Numbered from the stretch's first letter, positions 3,624-64,000 are shown. The stretch is 64,000 bases of DNA from an uncultured virus (IMG/VR IMGVR_UViG_3300025832_000005) (IMGVR_UViG_3300025832_000005:62001-126000); one strand, 5' to 3'. Translations and numbers: made by a program. Notes: a model not told the origin generated them from the sequence alone.

Positions 3624-4319
3624 TTATTGTTCCTGATTAGGCTTTTGGGCAGCCAACCATTTTTGCGCACGCCGATCGTTAGGCGGCGTTGTTAAAAACT
3701 TTTGTACGTTTTTGAATACTTGATTAAAGTTCTGTTCACGAGCTGGGTTTTCTTGACCCCCGCTGTTATCAACTACATGGAAATCAGCGGCGCCAAAAAC
3801 TTGCTGAAACTGCATTAGATTTTGTTGAACTTGGTTCCACATTTTGGAAACCATTTCAGCTGGAATACTTCTAGCACGTTGCTTATTACGTTCTTGTGCT
3901 ACTTCTTCACTTGTGTTTACATACACCATCATTGTTTCGTATCCCAATGACTTTAGCGCATTACTATCTTTTTGTACTTTAGCAACATCTTTGCCTGTAC
4001 CATCAATAACAAGACCTAGACGACCATCTAAATATTGAGTACGTCTTTTCTGTGTAAGCTCTTTGGCTTTATCACGTACTTCTTGACCTGCTTGACTACC
4101 AACAACTTCTGGATCTCCAAGATCCATATCTTGTTTCTGCGCCAAATATTCATAAATCTCATCACTATTAACAGATTTAAGGCCGCTAGATCCAAGCATC
4201 TTTCTAGCCACATAAGACTTTCCAGAACCTGGGCCACCGGCCATAAACACTGCTTTAAAAATATGAGGGTCGTTTGGACCTTCTTCAAGTGGTTGATTTA
4301 TTACTTCGTTAATTTTCAT
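3624..4319 (-). CDS. P-loop kinase (AAA_33/zeta-toxin/PNK-like)
   Basis: AVFMAGGPGSGKS Walker A, VNSD, LVIDGTG, ERNKQRAR lid; late box 5 nt upstream. Confidence 0.8.
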   Translation of the reverse strand: MKINEVINQPLEEGPNDPHIFKAVFMAGGPGSGKSYVARKMLGSSGLKSVNSDEIYEYLAQKQDMDLGDPEVVGSQAGQEVRDKAKELTQKRRTQYLDGRLGLVIDGTGKDVAKVQKDSNALKSLGYETMMVYVNTSEEVAQERNKQRARSIPAEMVSKMWNQVQQNLMQFQQVFGAADFHVVDNSGGQENPAREQNFNQVFKNVQKFLTTPPNDRRAQKWLAAQKPNQEQ

Positions 4320-4337
4320 ACATATATTTATGTATTT

Positions 4338-4832
4338 TCATTCCCAACGATAAAAAATATGCGCACCAATACGTCCTACTAGCTGTAAGGATGACGCCCA
4401 ATTAGGCTGTACATATGTAGCGTGGTAGTGTGTTGCGCCTTCTGTTAGTCCACGGTGCTTGCCGTTTTGAACTACGTTCCACGCAAGAGTTTGAGCATCT
4501 ACCCAAAGATCTTGGTTTTGTGGGTTATCTGCTTTGCCGTCACAGTACCAACTAAATTGGCACTTGTTACGGCGCATGTTACCGTTATCATCTTGTAACC
4601 CCTGCTTGACTACTTCGCAGATTGTATCGGGATAACGTATATCGTTTACACGATTAAGAACTACATCAGCAACACCTGCTCTGTCTGCTAAATTACTTCC
4701 TCGTGCTTCGTAGTAGATGTTTAATGCCATACAGCGTACTTCAGGAAATTCTTCAATTAGCTTAAAGTCTGTTGCTGATGATACTGGAGTAAATGCGAAA
4801 AACATCATAACTGCCATAATAAGTTTTTTCAT
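4338..4832 (-). CDS. Cell-wall hydrolase, SleB/Hydrolase_2 family
   Basis: Signal peptide; CMALNIYYEARG..VLNRV..YPDTICEVV..CQFSWYCDG..GATHYHA..IGAHIFY. Confidence 0.9.
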   Translation of the reverse strand: MKKLIMAVMMFFAFTPVSSATDFKLIEEFPEVRCMALNIYYEARGSNLADRAGVADVVLNRVNDIRYPDTICEVVKQGLQDDNGNMRRNKCQFSWYCDGKADNPQNQDLWVDAQTLAWNVVQNGKHRGLTEGATHYHATYVQPNWASSLQLVGRIGAHIFYRWE

Positions 4833-4856
4833 ACTCTTTGCCTCATGTATAAGAGT

Positions 4857-5081
4857 TTATATAATCTGTCCAAATTTAATTTTCTGTCGGACAGTTCCTC
4901 GGTCATCGAGAAGTTTAACTTCGCCGTCTTTAATCTCACCTCGTTGTAGTAAGCCATGACGATCTTTAATTTTCTTTCTCATATGATTGATAGCTTCTTT
5001 TTTACTACCAAATAGTTCACATTCTTTTTTAACACTTCCGTGTCTGTTGTATTCAATTGTTTCAATTTCAAATGTAGCCAT
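4857..5081 (-). CDS. Hypothetical protein
   Basis: SD GGAG before the ATG at 5081; TTGACA box upstream. Confidence 0.6.
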   Translation of the reverse strand: MATFEIETIEYNRHGSVKKECELFGSKKEAINHMRKKIKDRHGLLQRGEIKDGEVKLLDDRGTVRQKIKFGQII

Positions 5082-6034: not shown

Positions 6035-6064
6035 TTTTGTTTCCTTGTTTGTTATCATACTACG

Positions 6065-6093
6065 ACTATAGCACCAAAACGTCTTGGTGTCAA
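6065..6093 (-). promoter_or_regulatory. Sigma70-type early promoter
   Basis: TTGACA-ccaagacgttttggtgc (17 nt)-TATAGT. Confidence 0.85.
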
Positions 6094-10254: not shown

Positions 10255-10554
10255 TTACCCTCCGGCTCTTACATCGCCGCTTGCGCTTGTCGCTGATGGT
10301 CCACAGTGTTCAGGACCATAACCTGGTCGTCCGCAATAGCTGTCTGCTGATGAGGGGTCATTTAAAATGATGATAGGTTTACCGCCAGCACGAGTTCTAC
10401 CACTAGTCGCAGTAGCTTGAAGAACGCCCCCACCATGACTGTTGGGGTCGCCCTCTGTACTAATAAATTGTCCGTTTACTCTGACATTATTAACTATAGC
10501 TCTAGTTGAGGCTCCACATAGTCTCTTGTCATTATTTCTGTGTACAAAGTTCAT
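10255..10554 (-). CDS. PAAR-like spike-tip protein (gp5.4-like)
   Basis: HR..D...CG..VRVNG...EGD...H, GGKPI...D, HC..A..S.DVRAGG pattern. Confidence 0.7.
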   Translation of the reverse strand: MNFVHRNNDKRLCGASTRAIVNNVRVNGQFISTEGDPNSHGGGVLQATATSGRTRAGGKPIIILNDPSSADSYCGRPGYGPEHCGPSATSASGDVRAGG

Positions 10555-10565
10555 ACACGTATTTA

Positions 10566-15749: not shown

Positions 15750-15772
15750 TGATCTGTTCCTCTATAATGTAT

Positions 15773-16438
15773 TTATGACAGGTTATAAAACTCTGCTACC
15801 TTGCCGGCCCACTTTTCTTCCCAAACTTTGAACTCTTCTGGGCCTACTTCAAATAACTGCCAGTCTAAATCTCGACTACACATAAAGATAGCGGCATGCT
15901 CAATCTTTGTTTCAAATATTTCGTTGTGGGCCATCGCATAAGCGGCGGCTTGCATAAAGTAGTCGTCAATCCACTCACGCTTTTTGGGTTTATTGGTTTG
16001 TTTAAAATCCATAATACAAGGCTTCCCCTTGTACATGCCAACTAAGTCAGTAGTACCAGCATACAATCCTGGATAACACAAGTTTACTTCACTACCCCAA
16101 ACTTCGTCAATGTCAGCTTCTACGTTTTTTATAACGGTCTCTGCCATCATCTTGGCTTGTAGCATAGTTTTACCTGTATACTCTTGGTTAAGGCTCCATG
16201 CTTCCAGCATTTCGTGCATTATTGAACCTACGCCAGCGGCTTCAGTTACAATTTGTTGTGCTTTCTTTTCACCTACACGCTTTTTCCAAGCATTGAGGTG
16301 TGTCATATCCTTTGTTTTACTCAGGATAGTAGTAACACTGGGCACAGGATCGCCATACGGATTTTCGTATAAACGTTTGCCGTTTACGCTTTTGCGTTTA
16401 AATTCTTGATACGGGTAGGGTGTGGTAATTTTTAACAT
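15773..16438 (-). CDS. PD-(D/E)XK exonuclease (Cas4/MGME1-like)
   Basis: VPSVTTIL..W...VG..G..MH..E..YAGTTDL..IMDFKQ..Q..AYA. Confidence 0.85.
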   Translation of the reverse strand: MLKITTPYPYQEFKRKSVNGKRLYENPYGDPVPSVTTILSKTKDMTHLNAWKKRVGEKKAQQIVTEAAGVGSIMHEMLEAWSLNQEYTGKTMLQAKMMAETVIKNVEADIDEVWGSEVNLCYPGLYAGTTDLVGMYKGKPCIMDFKQTNKPKKREWIDDYFMQAAAYAMAHNEIFETKIEHAAIFMCSRDLDWQLFEVGPEEFKVWEEKWAGKVAEFYNLS

Positions 16439-16469
16439 ATAGTGACTATAGCACTAATGAACTACAATG

Positions 16470-16814
16470 TCAATAGTTGATTACCCATTTAAATGTAGTA
16501 TTTGTAGTAGTATTTGTCTGACGTTGTATTGTATAACCCAAGTTCTCAAAATAACTAATAACTTGTTTCATTTGGTCAACTTTAGCAACATCAGCAATGT
16601 CAGTTCCTTGCCATACATTAAAATATGCTTTGGCATCAGCGGTTGCTGTTGGGTTACTCTCTGTCATTGTAGTTCCATCATCTACTATTGTTTGGTAAGC
16701 GCCAGCACTAGCATCAACTATAACTTGACGCATCAATGCTGATGTTTCATCAAAGATTGTTAAATCATTTCTTGCTGTTGTTCTTGCTTGCTGTGCGCTT
16801 ACTTGATAACTCAT
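16470..16814 (-). CDS. Hypothetical late protein
   Basis: 114-aa ORF in a coupled operon. Confidence 0.65.
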   Translation of the reverse strand: MSYQVSAQQARTTARNDLTIFDETSALMRQVIVDASAGAYQTIVDDGTTMTESNPTATADAKAYFNVWQGTDIADVAKVDQMKQVISYFENLGYTIQRQTNTTTNTTFKWVINY

Positions 16815-19578: not shown

Positions 19579-19866
19579 TTACTTTACCTTGTTTAGCCTT
19601 TGTATTGCTTTACTTGCTGGATTCATACGTTTTGTGCGCTGTGCTTTTTTAGCTATTCTAGCACCCATCTTTGCTTTAGTTTTACGTAAAGTCATTCTTT
19701 TCTTCATATCAATGGGTTTAGCACATTGTGATGGATCGCTCACAACTCTGCCTTTTCGTTGTCCCACACTACAGCGAAATTTTCTAACAATTTTATTACC
19801 TTTGCGAGCCCAGACTAGCTGTGCTTCAACAACAGGTTCTTCTGATGTGAGTTCGTTTAAGTTCAT
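19579..19866 (-). CDS. Small basic late protein
   Basis: Lys/Arg-rich 95 aa; late box 5 nt upstream. Confidence 0.7.
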   Translation of the reverse strand: MNLNELTSEEPVVEAQLVWARKGNKIVRKFRCSVGQRKGRVVSDPSQCAKPIDMKKRMTLRKTKAKMGARIAKKAQRTKRMNPASKAIQRLNKVK

Positions 19867-19885
19867 ATAGTTATTTATTAGATTT

Positions 19886-20737: not shown

Positions 20738-21520
20738 TTAAACTAGACTTCTTCCAAATGCTCTGCCAGCAGCAAATCCACCAGTGAACGCTGCAGCACC
20801 AACAGCTGCTCTTTGCGCAATTTTTCTAGCAGTAATTTTTGGCTCTGCGCTAGCAATATCTGGATTAATTAATCCGCCTGCTTTACTAAATTGTTTAAAT
20901 GGTTCATACAGTTCACTACGTATAGCATTGGCTCTATAATATTGAATTATTTTAGTTGCTGCTAATTGTTTTTGTCCTGCTTGTAATCCTTGCCATCCAG
21001 TTGCCATTCGTCTAATAGACTTATAATTAGCTTCTTTAATATCAAGACTGCGTTCAAGACGCATGAATAATCCACTAGCTTGTTTGGGATTTTGCCCAGC
21101 AGCTATGGATCTTAAATATGTTTTTAACTGTTGCTCTGGTATACCAACTCTTGCTGCTTGTGCTTTTTCAGAAGCATCGATACCAGTTTTAGTTGATATT
21201 TTATGAAGTGCGTGATAAAGATCATTGCCGTCTCTACGATAGTTTTTAAAGTTACCACCGCTAGCAAGTGTTCTTTTAGCATAATCTTGCGCCATAGGTT
21301 TAGTACTTGGATTTTGTGACATTATATGCATTGTTAGCAAGTTCATGAACGCAAAGTCCGCAGTGTTTTTCAAATCAACAGTTTCAAGTTGTTGACGAGT
21401 TTTGTACATTTTACTAGCTTCATTGAGATCATTAACAAACCCAAATTTTGGTTCGTTAGCCTCACTCATAGTATGTCCGCCTTCGATTTCTGCCCATTGC
21501 TTTGCTGTATATTGTTCCAT
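20738..21520 (-). CDS. Hypothetical late protein
   Basis: 260 aa; late box 5 nt upstream. Confidence 0.7.
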   Translation of the reverse strand: MEQYTAKQWAEIEGGHTMSEANEPKFGFVNDLNEASKMYKTRQQLETVDLKNTADFAFMNLLTMHIMSQNPSTKPMAQDYAKRTLASGGNFKNYRRDGNDLYHALHKISTKTGIDASEKAQAARVGIPEQQLKTYLRSIAAGQNPKQASGLFMRLERSLDIKEANYKSIRRMATGWQGLQAGQKQLAATKIIQYYRANAIRSELYEPFKQFSKAGGLINPDIASAEPKITARKIAQRAAVGAAAFTGGFAAGRAFGRSLV

Positions 21521-21528
21521 AGTAGTAT

Positions 21529-22602
21529 TTATAAGTTTGGCGTCCAGCGATGTCTTGGTACAAGTTTAATTTTATCTCTACCTACTACATATCCTTCGCC
21601 ACCACTTTCACCTTTTGTAGTTGCTGTTACATCAGCTGGAGCATTGTCTAGCTGATCAATAATATTATTTTTTACTGTCATAATTTGTACAACTAATCCT
21701 AGTATAGCATTTAATCCATTACTGTCACTAGCCATTAGTTTTGCTTGTTGTCCAGCACTTACTTTACTAGTTTTTAACCAGTCGAAAAAACCACTTTGTA
21801 ATTGCTTTAATTTACCTTGTTTTACCATTTGATTTACATATGTATAAATGATATTACCTTTATTACTAAGACCCTGTTCAGGTGTTAACCAACCGTCAAT
21901 TGCTTGAGCATTAGCATTAGTTGCTTTTATAATGTCTTCTACACTGCTAATATCTACACTAGCTTGATGTGGTACATATGTTTGACCCATAACTACAACT
22001 TCATTAGTATTAATTCTTTTTGTATCTTTAATAGGAGTGCCAGTTTTGTCGCCAAACTCTCCGTATATACTGTGTGCCGCAATACCAATACTACTTGCGC
22101 CAACTCTTTTACCAAGATCACTGTTAGCGTCTATAGTATATAGAACACTATTTGGTTCAAATTGATATGTGTCGTTGTTTGATACGTATGGTTTGCTTGG
22201 TGAGTATAATAAATCACCATATATAAAGCCACGCAGATCGTTTGGTGTATTACGTTGCATGATGTCAAATACATCACCCATGTTATTAGCAAAGTCCTGT
22301 CTCCAGTCTTCGCCTTTACCAGTACTCATAACAAATGATTTTAATTCATCACTGCTAGTAGTTTTATTTTTACCCCAGCCATTTTTACCAGTTAGTACAA
22401 ACGTTCCGTCTGCTTCTCTGCCCCAATAGATAGTAGGATTGCCGTCCCATTTAATGGCTACATCATTTGAATCTTGACCAAGTCGTTGTAGTATACTTGC
22501 CGCTCTAAGAGCACCAGCACTGCCTTCAGCAAATACTAGATCTTCTAAGTGCTGGTATTCACGCCCTACTTTAGCTTCCGTTAAAAACTGGTTTGCTCGC
22601 AT
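21529..22602 (-). CDS. Ligase-like nucleotidyltransferase (RNA-ligase/DUF6267-like)
   Basis: HLEDLV, KWDG (motif I), YGDLLY, EGYVV (motif IV), IKLV (motif V). Confidence 0.65.
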   Translation of the reverse strand: MRANQFLTEAKVGREYQHLEDLVFAEGSAGALRAASILQRLGQDSNDVAIKWDGNPTIYWGREADGTFVLTGKNGWGKNKTTSSDELKSFVMSTGKGEDWRQDFANNMGDVFDIMQRNTPNDLRGFIYGDLLYSPSKPYVSNNDTYQFEPNSVLYTIDANSDLGKRVGASSIGIAAHSIYGEFGDKTGTPIKDTKRINTNEVVVMGQTYVPHQASVDISSVEDIIKATNANAQAIDGWLTPEQGLSNKGNIIYTYVNQMVKQGKLKQLQSGFFDWLKTSKVSAGQQAKLMASDSNGLNAILGLVVQIMTVKNNIIDQLDNAPADVTATTKGESGGEGYVVGRDKIKLVPRHRWTPNL

Positions 22603-23390: not shown

Positions 23391-23623
23391 AGCTTTGATA
23401 CCCCTCTTTTAAACTTCCGAGGATCCTTGGTGCGAATTGAATTAATTAATCTTTTATTCAAATCCGCCGCAGTTTCATTATCAAATGTCTCATTAATTAA
23501 TTCAATTAAGTTAATTGCCGTAGCAATTACTTGTTCAGCATTTGCTTCAACAAGTTGCCGTCTGTCACGCTTTGGTGACATAGAATTAATTTCTTCTAAA
23601 ATAGATCTCGTTTTACGTTTCAT
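23387..23623 (-). CDS. Hypothetical late protein
   Basis: 78 aa; TATAAATA 8 nt upstream. Confidence 0.65.
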   Translation of the reverse strand: MKRKTRSILEEINSMSPKRDRRQLVEANAEQVIATAINLIELINETFDNETAADLNKRLINSIRTKDPRKFKRGVSKL

Positions 23624-23645
23624 ATCAATACTATTTATAAATATT

Positions 23646-25535: not shown

Positions 25536-26531
25536 TAGCTGGATCTTCGTTGTGTTTGTTTCTGCACTGTCTATAATGCTCCTCACTGTGAATAGTCTAC
25601 CATATTTTACAGCAGCATCTGCCGCATCTTTACAGCTTTCCCATGGAGGAAAACTGACTGACCAACCTCTGCGAATAGCTGTTTTAACTAAGTCCATGCC
25701 TGCGCTATCTGCGTCTGGCACAACTATAACTTCTTTTTTTAGATCGTCAATAATATCACACTGTACATTACTTGGTGTATTGCCACTAGTAGCAATGCCA
25801 TTTACTAACAATGCGTCCATTTGACCTTCAGTAACGATCGTATACTTATGAGTACGCTGTTTGTCTAGATTATAAACAAAGTTCTTGGGCATCTGATGAT
25901 AGTATTTTGGTGTAGCTTTGTCAGGTGTTTGTCCTACCCAACGTGCTGTATATCCTACTGTTTTTCCTTTATAGTTAAACGGCAATATGATACGATTTCT
26001 GAAATGGCTTTCTGGTGTCCACTGCCAACCATTATAGAAACTCATTCCACGCTCTTCAACATACTGTACTGCTTTTATAAAACTTTCCAGTTGTCTTGGA
26101 GTTAGTGTATCAGTATCCCATTTATCAAAGGTAGTTGCGTTTTTTGGCAATTCCATAGGTTGCCATGTAATTTTAGCTTTTTCCTTACGTTCAGTAGTTG
26201 AAATAAACTGTTGTGCTACTTGATCTTTTTCGTTCTCTTTAAGTAGTTCAAAATTAACTCGTTGTATTTGGGCTGGATCAGCGCCAAACGCTACTAGTAA
26301 ATCAGATAACATTGTGTTGATTCGGTTACCAGGGCTCCAACCTGTTTTGTAATTACAGTTAAAACAGTTATATTGAACTTTATCGTCCTGGAACATTATA
26401 CCGCCACGTCCACGAGTATCTCTACTGTGTCCACGAGTATGGCACATTGGACAATTACCACTTGTCCATCCACTTGGGGACTGTTTCCAGCCACCAGGAA
26501 TGCTCTGGCGTACAAAATCTAAAACTATCAT
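25512..26531 (-). CDS. DNA primase (gp61-like)
   Basis: NCPMC..NCFNC zinc ribbon, RIILPF..GYTAR, TEGQMDA, PDAD..G, KDAAD TOPRIM motifs. Confidence 0.9.
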   Translation of the reverse strand: MIVLDFVRQSIPGGWKQSPSGWTSGNCPMCHTRGHSRDTRGRGGIMFQDDKVQYNCFNCNYKTGWSPGNRINTMLSDLLVAFGADPAQIQRVNFELLKENEKDQVAQQFISTTERKEKAKITWQPMELPKNATTFDKWDTDTLTPRQLESFIKAVQYVEERGMSFYNGWQWTPESHFRNRIILPFNYKGKTVGYTARWVGQTPDKATPKYYHQMPKNFVYNLDKQRTHKYTIVTEGQMDALLVNGIATSGNTPSNVQCDIIDDLKKEVIVVPDADSAGMDLVKTAIRRGWSVSFPPWESCKDAADAAVKYGRLFTVRSIIDSAETNTTKIQLLAKSYCR

Positions 26532-26540
26532 ATATGCAGT

Positions 26541-27335
26541 TTAACTTCTATATAGCACTTTGTCAAGTGTTCCTTCGTTGCCAACTGCTGCAACATAGCG
26601 GAAACGTACCCACATAAACATACCATCAAATGTAAACGGCTCTAGTCCAGTGGCACCAGTAAATGTCCAATAATCTTCTGCGTCACCTGGATTAAGCTGA
26701 ATAGTAAACCAATCGCCAACTGCTTCTGTTGGGCTTTGTTCAAGTGATCCTTCAGCATAAAACTTGCCACTAAAGTTAGTAGTGTACGCTACAACAGTAT
26801 TTGTGCCGTCACTATTCTGACTTTGGGCTGTACCAGTAAAATTATTTGTTGTATCAGTATCACCAGTTAAACTTTCATCATCTTGACTAGGGGTAATAGT
26901 GGTAGCTGTGGTAGCTTTTACTTCTAATACATATGTTAACCGTGCGTTTTGGTCACTGTATAGTCCAAATACCATTGCTTCACTATCGGTATAAGTAATG
27001 GTAACATCATATAACGCAGGAGACAATTTACCTAGATCGGACTCAGTTAACCGCATTAATACACTACCAGTATCAGTACTAAGTGTAACAAGAGTTTTAG
27101 TTATAATAGCAGTCTTGGTTGTTCTATTAACCACACTTGCTTTAAAAGTTTTATTAGCTAAACTTACTGGTTTGCGACTGTTATCGATAACAAAGAATTC
27201 AAAATCATTAGTAACCCCATCATAAGCAATTAATGGCTTATGATTTTGTGAACCATAATATGTTGTACCTCTACGATTTGGTATAACAATTTCACTTCGT
27301 TGGTTGTAACTATATGCTTTGCTTTGATAATTCAT
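26541..27335 (-). CDS. Structural protein with a BppU-like N-terminal domain
   Basis: beta-rich, G..N..EF.V.D..RKPV pattern; late box plus SD GGAG before ATG 27335. Confidence 0.55.
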   Translation of the reverse strand: MNYQSKAYSYNQRSEIVIPNRRGTTYYGSQNHKPLIAYDGVTNDFEFFVIDNSRKPVSLANKTFKASVVNRTTKTAIITKTLVTLSTDTGSVLMRLTESDLGKLSPALYDVTITYTDSEAMVFGLYSDQNARLTYVLEVKATTATTITPSQDDESLTGDTDTTNNFTGTAQSQNSDGTNTVVAYTTNFSGKFYAEGSLEQSPTEAVGDWFTIQLNPGDAEDYWTFTGATGLEPFTFDGMFMWVRFRYVAAVGNEGTLDKVLYRS

Positions 27336-27380
27336 GTTTCGGATCTCCACTACTATTTATAGTGATAAGTAATAATAATA

Positions 27381-27764
27381 ATGACACATATACCAAACAA
27401 ATATCAAAAACTACTAGAAAATTTTCCGTTCTTAACTTTAGTTTCGTACGGCGGTAACGAGTACGTTGGAATAATGCAAAATCAGGACCATCAGATGGCC
27501 AGTATGTATTGTTTTGATAATATTAAAAATGACAAAGACAAAGAAGAATTTATTGAACTAGGCGAAGAATGGTGGTGGGGGACAAATAGAATGATCCCTA
27601 TTAACATTATTTTTAAAAGTCAGTGGAGCAAATATAGATCATCACTGGTTACATTTAGTCTTAAAGACTTTCAAGTAGTACATGGGCCAACTATTAGCCT
27701 AAGTAACATTTGTCAGAAACGTATTAAACGCCGTAATATTCAGTTAGTACGTAAAGTTACGTAG
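27381..27764 (+). CDS. Hypothetical phage protein
   Basis: FPFLT..EYVGI.QN..LGEEWWW..NRMIPI; only plausible + strand gene in this region. Confidence 0.75.
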   Translation: MTHIPNKYQKLLENFPFLTLVSYGGNEYVGIMQNQDHQMASMYCFDNIKNDKDKEEFIELGEEWWWGTNRMIPINIIFKSQWSKYRSSLVTFSLKDFQVVHGPTISLSNICQKRIKRRNIQLVRKVT

Positions 27765-32805: not shown

Positions 32806-32860
32806 ATTTAATATACTACACTACTTGTTGGGGGTTGTCAATAATACTTATAATAAAGAA

Positions 32861-38609: not shown

Positions 38610-38684
38610 TTATCTTTTTACTCTACAAATTGGACAAAAGTCGTTGTGATCCAATTCAAATTTACATTCAGGACATTTATTCAT
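38610..38684 (-). CDS. 24-aa zinc-ribbon peptide
   Basis: MNKCPECKFELDHNDFCPICRVKR; ATAAGTA box 5 nt upstream. Confidence 0.5.
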   Translation of the reverse strand: MNKCPECKFELDHNDFCPICRVKR

Positions 38685-38705
38685 ATTAATACTTATCCTG
38701 TATCT

Positions 38706-44374: not shown

Positions 44375-44490
44375 AGTTATTCTCCTAATATGTTTGCCTA
44401 TGTGTGTTGCTCTAAGAGCAACTTTTGCCTAAGTTTGCCTAAGTGACAATGTACTTATTATCACTAATATATAATACATGCGTTAGTTTG

Positions 44491-45855: not shown

Positions 45856-45882
45856 ATCTCTTTAACTTTCTATATAATGTAT

Positions 45883-47439
45883 TTATACCAAAAACGTAAA
45901 TGGCATAGGTGCTAAATCTTCTTCATCACTAAAACTATCTTTAAGCTCGTTATATGTAACTTCATCATACTGTGCTACTTGTTGTGCGACTCTAACCACC
46001 AGCAATGCTGACATTACTAAGTCATCAGTTTCGCCTTCTTTTGCGCTGTAACTAGCACCACGAGCAACAAATGTTTTTGTTTCACGTAGTAGTGTACTAC
46101 TGGCTATTTCCATTTTATCAGTTTCAATCCAGTTTTTAAATTTACTACATGCTGCTAACTTACTTTTGTTTGTAGTAGTAAACCCTTTTCTATAACCTCT
46201 GCTTGATCCAGCACGTCTAGGTTCAGATATAAATGTGCCAGGTAAGTTTTCCTCACCCATTTCATTAATAACAACTAGTGCCGCTTCTCCTAGTGTATTG
46301 TTTTCTACACTCCAATATATTTCAGATTCAGGTGCTCCTGATTGTATTTCAGTAAGCATTCCACGTAATATTCTTATTTGCTCTTGTATAGGAGTTTTAT
46401 TGTGCATCCACTCTCCTACTTGTCGCATACCAGGAAGCTCGTATATTTGTATTGCGCTGTTGTCGCCACCTGTACCCAAACTTGGATCCAATCCAGCAAT
46501 ATAAGTTTTTCCATTTTGGAATGGCCTATACCAACGTACTTGTCCAGTTTTCTTGAGTACATCTTTAGTTTCCATTAACGATAACTTTACACTGTCAATA
46601 AGTGTTTCATCAAAGGCAATGAATTCATTTAGGTGTTCACGACGGAATCGCTCCTCACCAATTTTACCTGTTTCTTCATCTGCCCATTTTTGGTCACGGT
46701 CTGGATGATGTTTCCAATCAGCACTGTATGCTTTAAACCCATTTTTACCAGTTTCTTTTTCATTACCATATGCGTCAGTTGTCTTTAGTGCTTCTCGCCA
46801 AATACGAGCAAATTGGTCATCGTCTTGGTTTGGTGTACTTGTAATAATACATTTACCACCTGTACTAAGTGTTGGTGACAATGCTGTCCAGAATTCACGA
46901 GCAATAGTAGGTCTTACAAACGCAAACTCGTCTAAGTACGCTAACGATATACTTAAACCACGTCCAGTATTGTCTGTAGTTGCTTGAGCAATAATACGGC
47001 TACCATTGTCAAACTCTAGTGATCCTTTATTATATGCTGTAACACCAGCACGTATAAAGTTTGGTAAAAGTTCGTAAGCAAAACGTATACGCTGCATAAT
47101 CTCTTGTGCGCCACTATACTTGTGCGCCGCAATTAGAATAGTTTGGTCTGGAATAAACATACTATACCACAGCAAGTATGCGCCCGCCGCAGTTGATTTA
47201 CCCATCTGTCTACTAATAAGAGCAATACTGTATCTGTGATTGTGATACGAATTTAATAGTTCTCTTTGGTAATCAAACAACTCAAATTTAAGTCTACCCT
47301 TGGTAGGGTGTTGAATCCAAACATATTCAGTTATAAAGTACTGCGGATCCATAGCACATTTAGCAAGTTCTTGTAACTCATGCGTTGTGTATTTTTCTTT
47401 TGTGTACGGGGTTTTAGTTAATTTTGTATCTACTGACAT
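45883..47439 (-). CDS. Terminase large subunit (gp17-like)
   Basis: LFDYQ, SRQMGKST, YLDEFAFV, TSTPN, GLDPSLG.GGD.S, VENN, DDLVMS. Confidence 0.95.
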   Translation of the reverse strand: MSVDTKLTKTPYTKEKYTTHELQELAKCAMDPQYFITEYVWIQHPTKGRLKFELFDYQRELLNSYHNHRYSIALISRQMGKSTAAGAYLLWYSMFIPDQTILIAAHKYSGAQEIMQRIRFAYELLPNFIRAGVTAYNKGSLEFDNGSRIIAQATTDNTGRGLSISLAYLDEFAFVRPTIAREFWTALSPTLSTGGKCIITSTPNQDDDQFARIWREALKTTDAYGNEKETGKNGFKAYSADWKHHPDRDQKWADEETGKIGEERFRREHLNEFIAFDETLIDSVKLSLMETKDVLKKTGQVRWYRPFQNGKTYIAGLDPSLGTGGDNSAIQIYELPGMRQVGEWMHNKTPIQEQIRILRGMLTEIQSGAPESEIYWSVENNTLGEAALVVINEMGEENLPGTFISEPRRAGSSRGYRKGFTTTNKSKLAACSKFKNWIETDKMEIASSTLLRETKTFVARGASYSAKEGETDDLVMSALLVVRVAQQVAQYDEVTYNELKDSFSDEEDLAPMPFTFLV

Positions 47440-47464
47440 ACTAATACTTATGTTAAGTTAAAAA

Positions 47465-47497
47465 GGGGAAGCGACAAATTGTTTTGTCAGCTTCCCC
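47465..47497 (-). terminator. Rho-independent terminator-like hairpin
   Basis: ggggaagcgacaaa..tttgtcagcttcccc stem followed by a T-run on the minus strand. Confidence 0.6.
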
Positions 47498-47534
47498 AAA
47501 TGTAAACCTTAAGCCTGTAATTAAGGGTTGTATA

Positions 47535-49018: not shown

Positions 49019-49019
49019 A

Positions 49020-49640: not shown

Positions 49641-49644
49641 TTTT

Positions 49645-50145: not shown

Positions 50146-50165
50146 AATATTATCCTATCTTATAG

Positions 50166-50693: not shown

Positions 50694-51139
50694 TTTTTTC
50701 TCTTCTTTGTTTTCTTAGGATTATTAAAAAGTTCATTCTCAGTTAGCACTCTAAATCCTACGCCTTGTTTTGAAGCAAATAACTTTGCGGCTTGCCATTT
50801 AGCTTCGTTTACTACTGCGGCGGCTTTTTGAGCTGGACTTCTAGCATTGCCAAGTATTTGTCCAGCAGGCTTAATTTCTATAAACTCAGCATGTCTTTTT
50901 TTGTTTACATCTTCATACACTATAAAAAAGTCTGGCACATACATTGTTTGCTTATTTTTAACTGGATGAAAATATGGTATGCGATGACTTTCACTTGCCC
51001 AGGCTACTACACTAGGATGTGTATCACAAAATCTCATAAATTTTAATTCCCATCCACTACGATATCTCGGTGAATGTTTACCAATATACCTAGATAAATT
51101 TCTAGGTGTGAATATTCCTTGTTGAAACTTAGATGCCAT
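50690..51139 (-). CDS. Head completion nuclease (gp4-like, TnsA fold)
   Basis: YRSGWE..FM..CD..V..WASE..IPY..Y.PDF..EIKP..N.AKW.AA..F.VLTE. Confidence 0.9.
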   Translation of the reverse strand: MASKFQQGIFTPRNLSRYIGKHSPRYRSGWELKFMRFCDTHPSVVAWASESHRIPYFHPVKNKQTMYVPDFFIVYEDVNKKRHAEFIEIKPAGQILGNARSPAQKAAAVVNEAKWQAAKLFASKQGVGFRVLTENELFNNPKKTKKRKK

Positions 51140-51160
51140 TATATACGTATTTATGTTTAA

Positions 51161-51841: not shown

Positions 51842-51847
51842 TAGTTA

Positions 51848-52438
51848 TTAGCCTGTTGCGTTAACTAATGTGTTGTCTACTGTGCCGCCTGTAAGTGTGG
51901 CGTTTCCAGCAGCGTCATAAATCTCTGCGTTGTCGTATTGAATTTGTACTGTAACTTGTACTTGGTCACTTGCGCTATATGCCATATCGCCATACTGAAT
52001 GTTTGTGATGTAGCAACCGCTAAGTTCAAACTTGTCTAGTACACCTGGTGTTGGATTTGCTCCGTCAAGTGTTTCTATTGAAGTTGAAAATTTATAACCA
52101 GCACCTGCTCTTACACTACTTTGGTTAGCGTGGTCTACTTGTCTGTTAAGTTGGTTATTTAATTCTCTTAGTGTAACGCCATCAATGTCGTCACGTAATA
52201 CAATACTTACAGGTTCCCATGTGTGTTTGCCTGCTAAGTAAATTCTACTATTGTACGCATCTACTGGGATTTGTTCGTGTGTTAATCCAGGTCTGCTTGT
52301 ACTAATAACGTTTCTTGTTGGGGTAGCACTAAAGCCTTCACCCTCAAAAGTAACTCTGAAACGGTACTGTAGTTTTGGCATAATAGTAGTGGTGTTTCCT
52401 GAATTGTCTGGAACACCTAGTGTTGTTAATACTGCCAT
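51848..52438 (-). CDS. Tail tube protein (gp19-like)
   Basis: PKLQYRFRV..RP..YLAGKHTWEP..RDD..GC...YGD..Y..IQYDNA. Confidence 0.85.
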   Translation of the reverse strand: MAVLTTLGVPDNSGNTTTIMPKLQYRFRVTFEGEGFSATPTRNVISTSRPGLTHEQIPVDAYNSRIYLAGKHTWEPVSIVLRDDIDGVTLRELNNQLNRQVDHANQSSVRAGAGYKFSTSIETLDGANPTPGVLDKFELSGCYITNIQYGDMAYSASDQVQVTVQIQYDNAEIYDAAGNATLTGGTVDNTLVNATG

Positions 52439-52537
52439 GTTAGTCTCCTCTATACTAGCTAATACTATTTATAAGAAATCAGTGAAAAAAAATGGACGCA
52501 CTAGGCGCCCATTAAGTTTGTAGTTATTTTAGTCTTT

Positions 52538-54916: not shown

Positions 54917-55010
54917 TTTATTCTCCTCTGGTCATATCTATCGATGTTAGTATTTATTAGAATAGCTATATATCAGGGGGGAAACAGGGGTTAACTACGT
55001 AGTTATTTAA

Positions 55011-55523
55011 TTAATTAGCACTATATGAGTCAATATGTGAGATAAGAGCATGTACATTAAACTCAAGATCTTTTAGTGTACCATTGTTACAAATAGTAAA
55101 GTCTGACATCCACTGTTCTAAACTCATACTATTTTTATTCTCTGGAGGTAAATGATCACTACGGTCAACCCAAATACAGTAATCAAACACACCTGTATTT
55201 TTCATGGCATGGAATTCTTTTTTGTTTCTTAGCCCACAATAGATGTCATAAGCGTTAAACATTTCTCTACCTAGTGTAGCAGGATCCGGTACATTGTAAT
55301 CACAGATAGCTTCATACCACTCTTGTCTGTGGTTATGTCGGTCAGCATAACATTCTTCTTCAGATTTATATCCATACTTGTCTTTAAGATCGTTGTATAT
55401 AAATTGTAGACTACAAAATTTTGAACTGCTTTCAAAACTGTATCCATACGTGTCTCTGAGTATCTCACAGACAGTATCTTTGCCATGGCGTCCATGACCT
55501 ATTACTAGTAATTTTAATTTCAT
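55011..55523 (-). CDS. Deoxynucleoside monophosphate kinase-like protein
   Basis: IGHGRHGKDT, G.R..E, D..I.NNGTL. Confidence 0.7.
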   Translation of the reverse strand: MKLKLLVIGHGRHGKDTVCEILRDTYGYSFESSSKFCSLQFIYNDLKDKYGYKSEEECYADRHNHRQEWYEAICDYNVPDPATLGREMFNAYDIYCGLRNKKEFHAMKNTGVFDYCIWVDRSDHLPPENKNSMSLEQWMSDFTICNNGTLKDLEFNVHALISHIDSYSAN

Positions 55524-55554
55524 GTTTATATAATAGCAAACCTAGTTGTAGTTG

Positions 55555-56295
55555 TCAACCGATAATTATACCTAAGCCAGCTTGGCCATCAGTATAAGTT
55601 TTAAGTTCATCATCTAGTTTGTCAATTGCCATTTGCGCATCACTACGCAATGCGTCAGCATTAAGACTAGTACCACCTTGTGGACCAGCAATAGTATTAA
55701 ACTTACCACGAGCTTCTGCTAACATTAGTTTACTATATGCTAGTGCCAATTCTTTAATCCATGGCATGGCATATGTATCACTTAGTAATTCTTCTTCACT
55801 GCGCTGTTTATAAGTGTGTAAGTATACAGTGTCAGCGGCTTTAGTTCTGCGATGAATTGTTATTTTTTTACTAACAGTATTCCAAGTAAACAATAACTCT
55901 TTACCAAAAATACGACCAAGTGTTTCACGATGTTGTGATAAAGCATCAAATGTTGCTAGTCCGCCAGCTCTACCGCCGTGTAACAAATAGTTGTTTAAAT
56001 ATGCTGCTTCGAATGGTTCCATATCAGCACCACCACTACCATTAAGTGTGCCACTTGCTCGTCTGTAAATGGTATAAACATCTATAACTTCATCAGGTAA
56101 AGTATAGTCAGCAACATCAATTACTAAGTCTAATGTAATGAAGCTTTCTTCGACAGCGTTTTCACTACGCTGTCTATATTTTTCTAATGCCTTGCGAATG
56201 GAAAGATCGTAGTGCTCTGGGTCGAGCTCTACGTCTACCATTTGTCCGCCTAAGCGAAGTTCGATTTCTTTAATTAATTCATCACGTTTTGCCAT
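55555..56295 (-). CDS. Neck protein (gp13-like)
   Basis: RLGG.MVDVEL..RGKF..I.GP.GG..LN motif. Confidence 0.85.
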   Translation of the reverse strand: MAKRDELIKEIELRLGGQMVDVELDPEHYDLSIRKALEKYRQRSENAVEESFITLDLVIDVADYTLPDEVIDVYTIYRRASGTLNGSGGADMEPFEAAYLNNYLLHGGRAGGLATFDALSQHRETLGRIFGKELLFTWNTVSKKITIHRRTKAADTVYLHTYKQRSEEELLSDTYAMPWIKELALAYSKLMLAEARGKFNTIAGPQGGTSLNADALRSDAQMAIDKLDDELKTYTDGQAGLGIIIG

Positions 56296-56308
56296 GTAAG
56301 TATTTATA

Positions 56309-57463: not shown

Positions 57464-57542
57464 GTTATTCTCCTGAACTATATTGCCGTTACTTATAAAC
57501 AATACACTATTTAAAAACCTTTGTCAAGCCATAAATATACGT

Positions 57543-58685
57543 ATGCCACGTTTAACATTATATAAACCAACTAAAACTAACGATTTTCACTTTATGGATC
57601 GCCAGATCCGTGAGCAATTTTGGATTGGAGGCACAGGAGTTAACGTACACAAGTATGTAGGGCCAGCCGCACAGCCCAATCAAAATGATCCATCACAGCC
57701 CAATTATATTGACGGACGTGAAGTGGATCCACTCAGTGGAGATTTTATTAATGTAGATAGTCTCATTAATGAAACTAAAATACAAGACTTATTATTCTTG
57801 GAAAACAGAGATAGAAAATACGATCCAGACATTTACGATCTGCGTGGTATATATAATGTACAAGACAATGATTTTGACCTAACACAATTTGGTATGTTTT
57901 TAGCAAACGATCAATTTTATATGACATTCCATACTAATGATATGGTTGAATTACTTGGAAGAAAACTATTACCTGGTGATGTACTAGAATTACCTCACTT
58001 ACGTGATGATTTGTTATTAGATGCTAATAAAGCACCTATAAGCAAGTATTATGTAGTAGCAGACGGCAACCGTGGTGCTGAAGGATTTAGTCAAACTTGG
58101 TATAGTCATATTTGGAGAGTAAAACTTAATCCACTTACAGACTCACAAGAGTTTAATGATATACTTGGCAATGCCAGTGACAGTGCTACAGTAAATTACG
58201 ATATAAGCACATATAAGTCAGAGTTTAATGTTAGTGATGCGATTGTAGCAAGTGCTGCGCAAGATGATCCAGATGGTACAAGTTTACTAGATCATTTATA
58301 TGGTTTTGAACACGCAACTGCTGGTGGTGTTGTAATACAAGATAATACATATAACCATGGCGAAACAATAGCAAGTGGCAGTGCTTTTCCAGCAGATGCC
58401 AATGAAGGCGAATATTTTATTAGAACAGACTTTAGTCCGAACCGTATGTTTGTGAGAAGAGGTTCTAAGTGGAACAGAAGTTACGACAACGTAACTGACA
58501 AGACTTGGGTAGACCGTACATATAACGCAAGTGATTATATTACAGAAGATGCCAAGTCAATGGTAAACGATGAAGAATTTAATAGGAAGCAAGCAATAAG
58601 TGATGTCATTATGCCACGTCCAGACAATAAAGTTAATAGCGAATATGTTGAAGACGGGTATACGGATGACGATTACGTGCTGTAA
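57543..58685 (+). CDS. Neck/head-closure protein (gp14-like)
   Basis: IQDLLFLENRDRKYD..LTQFG..GDVLELPH; late box 5 nt upstream of ATG 57543. Confidence 0.75.
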   Translation: MPRLTLYKPTKTNDFHFMDRQIREQFWIGGTGVNVHKYVGPAAQPNQNDPSQPNYIDGREVDPLSGDFINVDSLINETKIQDLLFLENRDRKYDPDIYDLRGIYNVQDNDFDLTQFGMFLANDQFYMTFHTNDMVELLGRKLLPGDVLELPHLRDDLLLDANKAPISKYYVVADGNRGAEGFSQTWYSHIWRVKLNPLTDSQEFNDILGNASDSATVNYDISTYKSEFNVSDAIVASAAQDDPDGTSLLDHLYGFEHATAGGVVIQDNTYNHGETIASGSAFPADANEGEYFIRTDFSPNRMFVRRGSKWNRSYDNVTDKTWVDRTYNASDYITEDAKSMVNDEEFNRKQAISDVIMPRPDNKVNSEYVEDGYTDDDYVL

Positions 58686-58696
58686 GGATAAAAAAC

Positions 58697-61195: not shown

Positions 61196-61196
61196 C

Positions 61197-62945
61197 ATGG
61201 AATTGTTCCAAGTAACACTAAAGCATGGCGAAGACATTAATGCTTTCTATGAGGATATGGAAACACCAGGTGGTGCTCTAACTATTCCAGATCGTAAAGT
61301 AGAGTGTGCCGCAAGACGCCCAACTTCAAGAACCACAGGCTATATGCTTACTATGGAAGAAGCAATGGAAGTAGCTGATGACGACAGAGTTGAACAAGTT
61401 ATACCACAAAGTGTTTTAGATAGAAACATAGATAAACCAGCAAGTACTTTCACAGGCAGGTTTGACAAAGGTGTTCCAAGCGGTTCAGCGCCGTTTACAA
61501 AAGCAAATGGTCAAACAGGAATGAAGTATACTGTTGATCACAAAAATTGGGGCATACTAAGACACAGTGAAGGCGCAAACAGAACCAATTGGGGATCAAA
61601 TGCTTCATTATCAGATAGATATGTTGATGACAGTGTAACATATTCAGCAAGTGGTAAAAATGTAGACATTGTTATTGTTGAAATAAAAACATTAAGCGAC
61701 CACGCAGACTATTCAAGTAGAGTAGTGGACTACAACTGGGGTCAACACTACAACACAATCACAGGTGGTACTAACTATACATACAGCAACGCAGACGCTC
61801 GTGACAACTATGGCGCAGAAGACAAACATCCCACAGCAGTCACAAGTTATGCGGCAGGCACACTATACGGACTTGCCAATGATGCAAACATATACATGTT
61901 TGACAAGACTTACGAAAAATCAAAGTCAGGCGGCAGTAGTGATGATAGAACTTATGCCTACATCAGAGAGTTTCACGCAAACAAAAGTATAAATCCAGCA
62001 ACAGGTAGAAAAAATCCTACTATTGTTAATATTAGTTTGGGAACACAGACCCTAGTAGGCGGCGGGGCCGCTTTAATTCACTTCCAGGGTGTAACTACAG
62101 ACAACGGCACAGGCAATGATCTATTAGCCGCAGAACTAAATGCAAGAGGTATATATGCAAGTGATCCTGAGTGGACAGACAATCAACAATTTAGTGTAAA
62201 TTCGCAAGTCCTACTAAGTGATATGCAAGATGCTATAACAGATGGAATTATTATTGTAGCATCGGCAGGCAACGAAAACAGATACACTGATGTGTCAGAT
62301 GGCGACAACTACGATAACTATATTGTTAGTGAGGGGGCATATTTCTTTAAAGATTACTACTTTGGCGGTAATTATCCATTTAGATATTACTATCATCGTG
62401 GCTCCACTTATACGTTCAATGGTGCTATTTGTGTAGGTGCGTTAGGAGTTAACACAAATCAAGGCAAAGCAGGTTTCAGCAGTTGGGGACCAGGTGTCGA
62501 TGTATATGCCGCAGGAGTTGGTTGTTTTGGCGCAGGAGAAAGTAGCAATATTATGTTTGGTGTTCCGTATCCAGGACAAGAAGCAAATACATCAAACTGG
62601 GACACAGTACAGTCTGGATCAGGAACAAGTTATAGTGCGCCGTTCGTAACAGGTATGTTAGCTTGTTTAGCAGAAATATATCCTAACCTTACACACGCAC
62701 AAGCAAGAACATATTTACACGACAATGCTGTAACAGGATTAATGGTAGACACAGCAGACGCAATAGATGTAGACACAGACACAAGAACAAGCATAGACGG
62801 TAGCAGCATTGATAGAATAGCATTGTGGAAGAATCACAGAGCCACATCAGGCAATATGGCGTTCAACACATATAACAAAGATGTTAACAATAAGCCTACA
62901 ACTGGTGCTATCTATCCTCGTACAAGAATACGCAAGCGTGGGTAA
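61197..62945 (+). CDS. Subtilisin-like S8 peptidase
   Basis: SGKNVDIVIV, HPTAVTSYAAG, IVNISLG, SAGNE, FSSWGPGVDVYAAG, SGTSYSAPFVTG. Confidence 0.85.
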   Translation: MELFQVTLKHGEDINAFYEDMETPGGALTIPDRKVECAARRPTSRTTGYMLTMEEAMEVADDDRVEQVIPQSVLDRNIDKPASTFTGRFDKGVPSGSAPFTKANGQTGMKYTVDHKNWGILRHSEGANRTNWGSNASLSDRYVDDSVTYSASGKNVDIVIVEIKTLSDHADYSSRVVDYNWGQHYNTITGGTNYTYSNADARDNYGAEDKHPTAVTSYAAGTLYGLANDANIYMFDKTYEKSKSGGSSDDRTYAYIREFHANKSINPATGRKNPTIVNISLGTQTLVGGGAALIHFQGVTTDNGTGNDLLAAELNARGIYASDPEWTDNQQFSVNSQVLLSDMQDAITDGIIIVASAGNENRYTDVSDGDNYDNYIVSEGAYFFKDYYFGGNYPFRYYYHRGSTYTFNGAICVGALGVNTNQGKAGFSSWGPGVDVYAAGVGCFGAGESSNIMFGVPYPGQEANTSNWDTVQSGSGTSYSAPFVTGMLACLAEIYPNLTHAQARTYLHDNAVTGLMVDTADAIDVDTDTRTSIDGSSIDRIALWKNHRATSGNMAFNTYNKDVNNKPTTGAIYPRTRIRKRG

Positions 62946-62953
62946 ATAGTAGT

Positions 62954-64000
62954 ATGACAAATATAACCGCAGTACCATACTTTTATGACAAACAATTTAG
63001 ACGCTATATTCAGCAATTTATTCGTATCTTTGCGGGCTTTCAGTATGTTAAAGGATACACTGAGCAAGGCGAGCCAGTGTATCATACAACACCCGTTCGT
63101 TATGGTGATATTAGTCGTATGGCGGCACATATACAAAGAGAGAACAGTGAGAATACATTAAGCACTGTGCCTTTTATTAGTTGTTATGTTACTGATTTAC
63201 AACCAGATGTAAACAAACGAGTGTTTCCTCAGTTTGAAGAAAAAATGACTGTTATTGAAAAAGAGTATAATACTACTACTAACAGTTATCAAAATAAACA
63301 AGGCAGTGTGTACACAGTAGAACGTCATATGCCAGTACCTTATACGTTAAGAATGCAAACTGACATATGGACAAGTAACACAGATCAAAAAATGCAAATG
63401 CTAGAACAAATACTAGTATTGTTTAATCCAAGTCTCAACATACACACAACAAACAACCCACTAGACTGGAGTAGTTTAAGTGTTGTTGAACTTGTTAATA
63501 CACAGTGGACAAACCGTGGTATACCCAGTGGTGTTGATGATATAATTGATATTAGTACTTTAACATTTGAGTTACCAATCTTAATTAATCCTCCAGCAAA
63601 GGTAAACAAAAGTAGTATGATTCATACTATCATTACTAACTTACATGAAGTTGCTACTGGAGATGCTGATAGTATCAAGGTGTTAAATGATATTAATGCT
63701 ATCACTACTAGCTATACAGTAGTAGCAGTTGATAATAAAGTAAAACTAGATGTATCAGGCGGAGTAGCAACAGCACAAATACTAGGTAAAACTGGTGCTG
63801 TTGAAGCTGGGCTAAGATGGGATACTATTTTTAAACAATACGGTGCTGAACTCAGAGAAGGCACTAGTCAAATAAGATTTAAACAAACAGACGATCCTGG
63901 AGATATGACTACTGATATTATTGGTAAACTTAATGGTGACAGTTCATCAGATACATTAACAGTAACATTAGATAATAGTACTATAACCGCAGATTCACAA
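62954..64000 (+). CDS. Tail terminator/sheath stabiliser (gp15-like), runs off the window end
   Basis: YFYDKQFRRYIQQFIRIF..PVRYGD..MPVPY.L...DIWTSNTDQK.Q.LEQILVLFNP; not in the ORF track. Confidence 0.8.
   Translation, partial: MTNITAVPYFYDKQFRRYIQQFIRIFAGFQYVKGYTEQGEPVYHTTPVRYGDISRMAAHIQRENSENTLSTVPFISCYVTDLQPDVNKRVFPQFEEKMTVIEKEYNTTTNSYQNKQGSVYTVERHMPVPYTLRMQTDIWTSNTDQKMQMLEQILVLFNPSLNIHTTNNPLDWSSLSVVELVNTQWTNRGIPSGVDDIIDISTLTFELPILINPPAKVNKSSMIHTIITNLHEVATGDADSIKVLNDINAITTSYTVVAVDNKVKLDVSGGVATAQILGKTGAVEAGLRWDTIFKQYGAELREGTSQIRFKQTDDPGDMTTDIIGKLNGDSSSDTLTVTLDNSTITADSQ

Follow-up and report, generated by a model that had tools for sequence, protein, structure and literature searches.

Why does a gap of exactly 5 nt separate the same hexamer from the start codons of nine genes in an uncultured virus? 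We addressed this question in a 64,000-nt window, bases 62001-126000 of the linear, 133,132-bp IMG/VR record IMGVR_UViG_3300025832_000005, which CheckV estimates to be 37% complete and which is a 133-kb fragment of a marine giant myophage related to PA5oct and Rak2. The hexamer is TAAATA or TAAGTA (TAARTA, hereafter the box), and we write Nk for k nucleotides between the box, or another promoter element, and the ATG. A first-pass annotation of the window had assigned the arrangement to a leaderless late programme, with transcription starting on the A of the ATG itself. We find that the exact spacing is real, lies far beyond chance and is conserved in relatives. The box is very probably a late promoter, and sequence comparisons suggest that the spacing probably exists to make leaderless or near-leaderless mRNAs.

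All nine box-N5-ATG sites of the annotation are present, seven on the minus strand (4319, 10554, 19866, 21520, 38684, 47439 and 56295) and two on the plus strand (57543 and 62954), as are three sites with slightly longer spacers (N8 at 23623 and 51139, N9 at 27381). The raw pattern count in the window is mildly enriched, with nine matches against 3.78 +/- 1.96 in 100 shuffled sequences, one of which reached nine. A histogram of box-to-ATG distances over the whole contig and both strands shows the enrichment at N5 on which the claim depended. The contig contains 222 TAARTA sites, and ATGs opening an open reading frame (ORF) of at least 80 codons occur 11 times at N5, never at N2, N3, N4, N6 or N7, three times at N8, and beyond N8 in a broad hump at N17-35. 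Such long ORFs begin at 11 of the 12 ATGs found at N5; for the remaining spacings between N0 and N40 the proportion is 56 of 194 (Fisher p = 2e-5). With 1.4 such ATGs per spacing on average, at least 11 would occur with a Poisson probability of 3e-7. In our own gene calls the box lies at N5 in ten genes, at N8 in two, at N9 in one and at N1-4, N6 or N7 in none. Three further N5 sites are located outside the window, at contig positions 1415 (a baseplate hub/CHAP-like gene), 40121 (a homing endonuclease gene) and 34934; the last has in-frame starts upstream and is excluded from the ten N5 genes, which were called by first ATG.

The starts themselves have common properties. No Shine-Dalgarno (SD) match is found in the 14 genes with a box at most 10 nt from the ATG. 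The start codon is ATG in all ten N5 genes and also in all five genes of a second, sigma70-type class at N6 and N7, which is described below. In the 15 candidate leaderless mRNAs, the first 45 nt are A-rich and G-poor, and their predicted folds are less stable than in 88 SD-led genes (median -1.4 versus -4.0 kcal/mol, one-sided Mann-Whitney p = 0.015), which lends modest support to a leaderless reading.

We compared these starts with those of related viruses. Using TerL, a 289-residue SLT-like protein and the 57543 protein as queries, we recovered 176 IMG/VR loci (2.07 Mb), which together hold 2,339 distinct box contexts. In these contexts, long-ORF ATGs lie 159 times at N5, as compared with 2-8 times at N0-4 and N6, 14 times at N7, 25 times at N8 and at most 35 times anywhere else. 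Orthologous starts were then located by tblastn of the N-termini, and their distinct 30-nt upstream regions were classified. For the large terminase gene (45883-47439, minus strand), where a T-run precedes an ATAAGTA box (47437..47450), the 44 distinct upstream regions comprise 34 with the box at N5, two with it at N6-9, six with an SD and two of other types, so that 42 of the 44 carry either a box at N5-9 or an SD; in many relatives, too, the TerL box stands behind a hairpin or a T-run. The neck or head-tail adaptor gene (55555-56295, minus strand; ATAAATA box at 56293..56306) keeps N5 in 14 of 41 regions, whereas 25 combine the box with a leader and an SD, none falls at N6-9 and two are other. 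For the virion structural protein gene that starts at 57543 in a divergent intergenic region (57543-58685, plus strand; ATAAATA box at 57532..57545), the 44 regions divide into 21 at N5, ten at N6-9 and 13 with an SD, with none left over. The gp15-like tail sheath stabiliser gene starting at 62954 (plus strand; box at 62943..62956) has a TAAATA box whose TAA is the stop codon of the upstream gene, and its 37 regions comprise three at N5, none at N6-9, 19 with an SD and 15 others.

A TAAATA box at N5 precedes a 99-residue ORF (10255-10554; 10552..10565), a 95-residue ORF (19579-19866; 19864..19877) and a 260-residue ORF (20738-21520; 21518..21531), all on the minus strand, and N5 is retained in three of three, two of two and five of five distinct upstream regions of relatives, respectively; at the 260-residue ORF the box TAA is again the stop codon of the upstream gene. 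For the TAAATA-N5 gene at 3624-4319 (minus strand; 4317..4330), which encodes a 231-residue zeta-toxin/AAA_33-like kinase according to Pfam and PHROG, we recovered no relatives. The annotation had also counted 38684 as a late gene. The TAAGTA-N5-ATG is present there (38682..38695, minus strand), directly after a tRNA-Ser, but the ORF (38684-38610) is only 24 codons long, though it encodes a zinc-ribbon-like CPEC...CPIC peptide. Downstream of this mini-ORF we noted a tRNA-like remnant, followed by a leadered box plus SD for an HNH gene at 38518.

The three genes with longer spacers are a head closure gene (50690-51139, minus strand; ATAAATA-N8 at 51137..51153) with a predicted leader of 3 nt, a 78-residue ORF (23387-23623, minus strand; TAAATA-N8 at 23621..23637) and a 127-residue ORF (27381-27764, plus strand; TAAGTA-N9 at 27366..27383). 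The head closure gene is variable in relatives, with six of 41 upstream regions at N5, 18 at N6-9, nine with an SD and eight others. A box-N5-TTG at 57502, the sole non-ATG match that opens a long ORF, was considered as a tenth leaderless gene and rejected: the box is not conserved in two related loci (L018 and L019), and the real start is the ATG at 57463 behind an AGGAG.

Other late genes carry the box at a distance, as the annotation had observed. It lies 34 nt before the sheath ATG at 54916 (54951..54956), 27 nt before the tube ATG at 52438 (52466..52471) and 20 nt before the ATG at 15749 (15770..15775), all on the minus strand, followed by an AGAGGAG, AGAGGAG and AGAGGA SD, respectively. 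All 42 distinct upstream regions of sheath and all 32 of tube have an SD, with none at N5, none at N6-9 and no others. The 45855 gene, which is leadered in this phage, has 43 distinct upstream regions, of which six, from distant relatives, are at N5, none is at N6-9, 16 have an SD and 21 are other. The box and its spacing persist in relatives while the flanking DNA has diverged, and the SD-led orthologues of TerL, neck and 57543 begin at the same codon, which validates these start codons. Individual genes thus appear to flip between N5 and a leader with SD over evolutionary time, while the promoter is kept. The annotation had gone further and proposed two translational classes, leaderless for low-copy assembly parts and SD-led for high-copy parts. 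In this lineage the distinction stands (N5 in 34 of 44 regions for TerL, in 0 of 42 for sheath and in 0 of 32 for tube). It is not general, as the tail tube gene of the pelagimyophage HTVC008M is itself an N5 gene.

Several lines of evidence identify the box as a likely promoter. It matches the T4 late consensus TATAAATA as well as ATAAATA, for which a late-promoter role has been proposed in phages CBB and GAP32, and the hexamer, usually with a preceding A, recurs 18-36 nt upstream of the SD-led structural genes (sheath, tube, 15749, 45855 and 57463). In the cryo-electron microscopy structure of the T4 gp55 open complex, the adenines at -12, -9 and -8 are flipped (PMC7892883), and roughly one helical turn separates the late TATA box from the start that follows it (PMC2988020). 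With the flipped adenines as anchors, TATAAATA spans -13 to -6 and a gap of N5 places +1 on the A of the ATG; the geometry assumed by the annotation is thus right. The pooled logo of the 159 N5 sites in relatives has A at -12 in 73%, a purine at -2 in 82% and T at -1 in 75%. A pyrimidine at -1 together with an A at +1 is a typical start-site context for bacterial RNA polymerase. No -35 element is apparent in this logo, where no base exceeds 57% at any position from -30 to -13. An A at +4, considered as a recognition base by analogy with work on lambda cI, was discarded, being found in only 29% of the pooled N5 sites. Homologues of gp55 (phrog_234, E 1e-22 to 1e-26) are encoded in five of the 23 relatives' records searched, including all four longer than 110 kb.

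The annotation had restricted the leaderless design to the late programme. This restriction does not hold, since sigma70-type promoters lie at N6 or N7 before early or replication genes. We scanned for TTGACA with at most one mismatch, a spacer of N16-18 and TAnnnT, followed by k nucleotides to an ATG. This contig has four sites at k = 6 and one at k = 7, and the relatives have 41 at k = 6 compared with at most four at every other k from 0 to 17. All five sites of the contig are on the minus strand, with a TTGACA-N17 arrangement. At N6, TATTAT abuts a dNMP-kinase-like gene (55011-55523; 55521..55558), TATAGT precedes an exonuclease gene (15773-16438; 16436..16473) and a 117-residue ORF starting at 6058 (6056..6093), and TAAACT precedes a primase gene (25512-26531; 26529..26566); at N7, TAGTAT precedes a DNA helicase gene (31351-32805; 32803..32841). 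The kinase site is kept in eight relatives, while one related locus (L040) has a leader and SD instead. Since the -10 hexamer of a sigma70 promoter occupies positions -12 to -7, +1 at k = 6 would likewise coincide with the A of the ATG. Two promoter types therefore each peak at the spacing that would give a 5' AUG, which we regard as the strongest argument for a leaderless design. The matching spike at N6 also counts against a translational role of the box and against its arising as a side effect of stop codons, and it implies that the design is not restricted to late genes.

These findings together suggest the following mechanism. The lineage would use a T4-type late transcription system, in which (A)TAA(A/G)TA acts as a -10-like late promoter element at -12/-11 to -6 and is read by a gp55-type sigma factor. 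Where the ATG follows exactly 5 nt on, RNA polymerase would start on its A and yield an mRNA without 5' leader or SD, translated via recognition of the 5'-terminal AUG in a 70S-type initiation. Host-type sigma70 promoters with a 6-nt gap to the ATG would have the same outcome. Across the contig, this predicts about ten late genes at N5, three to four at N8-9 with a 3-4 nt leader, and five early or replication genes at N6-7. Other late genes, including sheath and tube, would use the same box with a leader of roughly 15-30 nt carrying an AGGAG.

A number of points weigh against this mechanism. We found no match for gp55 in this contig with the T4 protein, phrog_234 or phrog_12791, which is weak evidence given that the contig is 37% complete. 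The TerL box, ATAAGTA, has a G at -8, a position at which an adenine is buried in T4 gp55; this may reflect a deliberately weak promoter or a different specificity of the sigma factor of the lineage. In three of the ten N5 genes (21520, 62954 and contig 1415) the box TAA is the stop codon of the upstream gene, and termination-reinitiation on read-through transcripts could thus also serve there. Our gene calls are greedy longest ORFs under a first-ATG rule (218 genes in the contig), and the 176 related loci were dereplicated by sequence context only and are not phylogenetically independent lineages. The metatranscriptome runs X3, X4, X17 and X18 cover window positions 44001-64000, evenly in X3 and X4 and patchily in X17 and X18. 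They consist of assembled contigs and consequently say nothing on 5' ends, which leaves leaderless transcription a prediction. For the host, a pattern-limited scan with the phage IF3 pointed to metagenome-assembled genomes of Bacteroidota, Saccharibacteria and WWE3 at 36-44% identity; matches of this strength do not suffice for a host assignment, and these candidates also clash with the sigma70-type early promoters and strong SDs.

We scored control phages with the same scripts. In T4, none of the 32 TATAAATA sites is followed by an ORF-opening ATG at N0-12, N28 being the most frequent distance; no ORF-opening ATG lies at N5 in Syn9. PA5oct has two of its 145 ATAAATA sites at N5, and CBB has two ATAAATA-N5-ATG matches in 378 kb. 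The late promoters of T4, which depend on gp55, gp33 and gp45, resemble those of our lineage in having an 8-bp TATA-like -10 element without a -35 element upstream of structural genes, and the lineage has homologues of gp55. They differ in that about a quarter of the boxes in this phage abut the ATG at N5, whereas T4 leaders have their mode at about 28 nt after the box. Relative to the T4 consensus, the first T is not conserved here, and position -8 can be a G, as in ATAAGTA. For the Rak2-like phages CBB and GAP32, ATAAATA has been put forward as a putative late promoter before structural genes, and a gp55-like sigma factor is encoded (PMC5259590). CBB, whose TerL is about 47% identical, shares this motif and its position with our phage but has only the two N5 sites, and the accessible part of that report describes no leaderless class (PMC5259590).

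A spike at the same spacing is found in the T4-like HTVC008M (NC_020484, loci L217-L224). Nine of its 45 ATAAATA sites lie at N5, two at N8 and no more than two at every other spacing, and TAARTA gives 12 at N5 (for example at record positions 18943, 19456, 31132 and 75830). Most of the nine ATAAATA-N5 sites precede genes of the baseplate, neck and tail. Among the products of the N5 and N8 genes are head closure, tail-tube cap, baseplate wedge, tape measure, DNA end protector, neck, tail tube, CsgF-like and CHASE2-like proteins. HTVC008M also shares with our phage a gp55 (E = 3.5e-66), a bS21, CsgF/CHASE2-like genes and the marine habitat. In contrast to our phage, it lacks IF3 and a sigma70-N6 spike and has the tube gene at N5, and it is distant, with 24 shared genes at a mean identity of 39% and a TerL identity of 30%. 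Prediction of late and middle promoters "was unsuccessful in PMP genomes" (PMP, pelagimyophage; PMC7029224), and as far as the accessible part of that study goes, the box-N5 architecture appears to be unreported for these phages (PMC7029224). Two genes of HTVC008M at N5, matching phrog_35576 and phrog_35372, have counterparts in a cluster of our contig that lies outside the window (contig 42045-49796, locus L083). This cluster comprises a CHASE2-adenylate/guanylate cyclase, a curlin-repeat protein, a FecR-like protein, CsgG and CsgF.

Leaderless mRNAs as such have precedents in lambda cI, in Thermus phages and in some bacterial phyla. What would be new here is a conserved class of leaderless phage mRNAs that is predicted to be fused to gp55-type promoters. 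The cI mRNA made from PRM, a sigma70-type promoter, starts on the A of its AUG and is recognized by 70S ribosomes or through its 5' AUG (PMC9031893, PMC10491246). Unlike the conserved set of about 15 early and late genes here, cI is one regulatory gene in a temperate phage. The Thermus phage phiYS40 makes most of its middle and late mRNAs without a leader, its infection reportedly increases IF2 and decreases IF3, and a link to the IF2/IF3 balance has been proposed (PMC3594737); the Deinococcus-Thermus phylum is itself rich in leaderless mRNAs (PMC12340547). phiYS40 is a virulent phage with many leaderless mRNAs, as predicted for our phage, but it has a leaderless-rich host phylum, another promoter type and no gp55 system. 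Thermus phage P23-45 reportedly also makes leaderless middle and late mRNAs. The start-site maps of phiKZ and AR9 report no leaderless phage transcripts. We found no description of leaderless mRNAs from T4-type late promoters in the literature searched, outside of which lay subscription journals and the PA5oct and CBB supplements; cyanophage matches for leaderless mRNAs were merely citations of a gene-finder paper.

The alternative that keeps leaderless transcripts but ascribes the design to phage translation factors had been raised by the annotation, which suggested tuning by the phage IF3 and bS21. Here, bS21 with or without IF3 would retune ribosomes between 5'-AUG and SD-led initiation. 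The two genes are indeed adjacent on the minus strand of the window, IF3 (IF3_N plus IF3_C) at 270..803 and bS21 at 65..220 (ORF 29-277) directly downstream, and both factors are known modulators of leaderless translation in Escherichia coli (PMC9031893, PMC10491246). We compared six genomes. Our phage encodes both proteins and has a strong N5 spike; HTVC008M has bS21 but no IF3 and an equally strong spike; PA5oct has bS21 but no IF3 and few N5 sites (2-4); CBB has IF3, a bS21 below cut-off and its two matches in 378 kb; T4 and Syn9 have neither protein and no N5 sites. The IF3 part of the proposal is therefore not supported, in that IF3 does not track the architecture, being present in CBB with its two sites and missing from HTVC008M with its spike. 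What is left for bS21 is a co-occurrence with N5 sites in three genomes (our phage, HTVC008M and PA5oct) of a six-genome sample without phylogenetic control, the protein being absent or below cut-off in T4, Syn9 and CBB. Moreover, high IF3 inhibits model leaderless mRNAs in E. coli (PMC9031893), and E. coli ribosomes lacking uS2 and bS21 translate lambda cI better (PMC10491246, a preprint). In E. coli, high IF3 and the presence of bS21 thus both disfavour leaderless mRNAs, which runs counter to the proposal and blurs the direction of any effect. We consider this alternative doubtful.

An extended version, which we also regard as rather unlikely, is that two unrelated marine myophage lineages, our PA5oct-like giant phage and the T4-like HTVC008M, converged on fusing a gp55 promoter to the start codon, each with its own bS21. 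The phage bS21 would remodel the mRNA exit and anti-SD region of host ribosomes such that leaderless phage messages are preferred over SD-led host messages. If so, promoter geometry plus one ribosomal protein would amount to a virus-specific translation channel. The start of IF3 has a peculiarity of its own: its ATG at 803 has no SD, and an AAGGAG-led upstream ORF of 13 codons in another frame starts 31 nt before the IF3 ATG and runs 9 nt beyond it (window 803-845, minus strand), which may provide coupling or autoregulation. IF3 and bS21 may be expressed either early or late: a sigma70-like site lies at 1410-1382, and downstream of the late box at 4319 no terminator is predicted on the minus strand. 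A phage initiator tRNA was also considered as a helper of leaderless translation and discarded, since the sole tRNA with a CAT anticodon (39991-40075, minus strand; ARAGORN), 85 nt in length, does not resemble an initiator: its variable arm is long and its 1-72 end is paired. This tRNA is atypical for tRNA-Met or tRNA-Ile2 as well.

It is also conceivable that the box is a late promoter, as we favour, while the N5 genes are translated mainly from longer read-through transcripts by termination-reinitiation or 70S scanning, with the short distance from stop to start, rather than a 5'-terminal AUG, explaining the lack of an SD. In its favour, genes follow one another closely on one strand, the box doubles as an upstream stop codon in the three of ten N5 genes named above, at 10554 a TAA directly precedes the box, and no minus-strand terminator is predicted between the late box at 4319 and position 29. 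However, TerL lies about 95 nt from its upstream gene with a T-run or hairpin in between, and 57543 has no upstream ORF on its strand. Coupling, furthermore, predicts neither a fixed 5-nt gap to a specific hexamer nor an N6 spike behind a sigma70-type -10. We judge this explanation unlikely, and its account of the missing SDs equally so, and prefer initiation on the 5' AUG of leaderless transcripts.

Much less probable is that TAA(A/G)TA is an AU-rich translational signal, S1-binding or Kozak-like, that acts 5 nt before the AUG of leadered mRNAs and is not a promoter. Its AU-richness and fixed short distance to the start codon would fit such a role, and the purine at -2 and T at -1 can be read as start-codon context. 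Yet the identical element is found 18-36 nt upstream of SD-led genes such as sheath, tube and 15749, where a function in ribosome binding is impossible. It matches the late-promoter consensus of T4, CBB and GAP32 in a lineage that encodes gp55, and TTGACA-N17-TAnnnT has an analogous spike at its own promoter-appropriate spacing. Chance or a compositional artefact of an AT-rich genome and start-codon choice can practically be dismissed, because the raw window count of about 2.4 times the shuffle expectation, reached in one of 100 shuffles, stands against a spike at a single spacing, long ORFs at 11 of 12 N5 ATGs versus 29% elsewhere (p = 2e-5), and a pattern that is kept in diverged relatives with different flanking DNA and absent from T4 and Syn9 by the same script.

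If the leaderless reading is correct, it would explain why late-promoter prediction failed in pelagimyophages and would improve the annotation of start codons and promoters in a large group of abundant marine phages. A simple rule (box-N5-ATG, -10-N6-ATG) would then predict transcription starts to the nucleotide. HTVC008M on Pelagibacter HTCC1062 would offer a cultured system for testing the effect of a phage bS21 on leaderless translation.

The remaining gene content is that of a large myophage. PHROG and Pfam scans identified sheath, two tube-like proteins, the gp15-like sheath stabiliser, neck, head closure and TerL; T4-like recombination genes (UvsX, UvsY and a gp32-like SSB) and ribonucleotide reductase; and the curli CsgG/CsgF cluster with the CHASE2 cyclase. 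The contig further has ten tRNAs and the adjacent IF3-bS21 pair. We found neither a major capsid protein nor a portal or gp55 in the contig, which fits a fragment of a larger genome. By TerL identity, the nearest isolates are Pseudomonas phage PA5oct (57%), Atu_ph07 and Rak2-like phages such as CBB, and a near-identity DNA search of a phage collection with TerL gave no match. By our own ORF calls, the contig has 45 genes in common with PA5oct (mean identity 42%), 24 with HTVC008M, 14 with Syn9 and 11 with T4.

Further observations concern individual loci. In place of a T4-type gp43 polymerase we found only short DNA polymerase III alpha-like pieces (phrog_11778, phrog_11127 and PF07733), at window 28496-29053 and contig 25433-25945. 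At contig 39461-41064 (locus L083:1461-3061), a phrog_655 homing endonuclease gene with its own box-N5-ATG lies between two ORFs that both match phrog_18771, which looks like a gene split by a mobile endonuclease. Within the gene at 47535-48341, contigs of two metatranscriptome runs have 19 other letters in place of 265 bases (window 47917-48183), representing a strain variant or an indel. Finally, the leader of the SSB gene (window 44375-44420, minus strand) contains repeated (C/T)TAGGCA motifs before a strong SD. These repeats are kept across about 40 distinct sequences in relatives and may represent an operator or a middle-promoter element.

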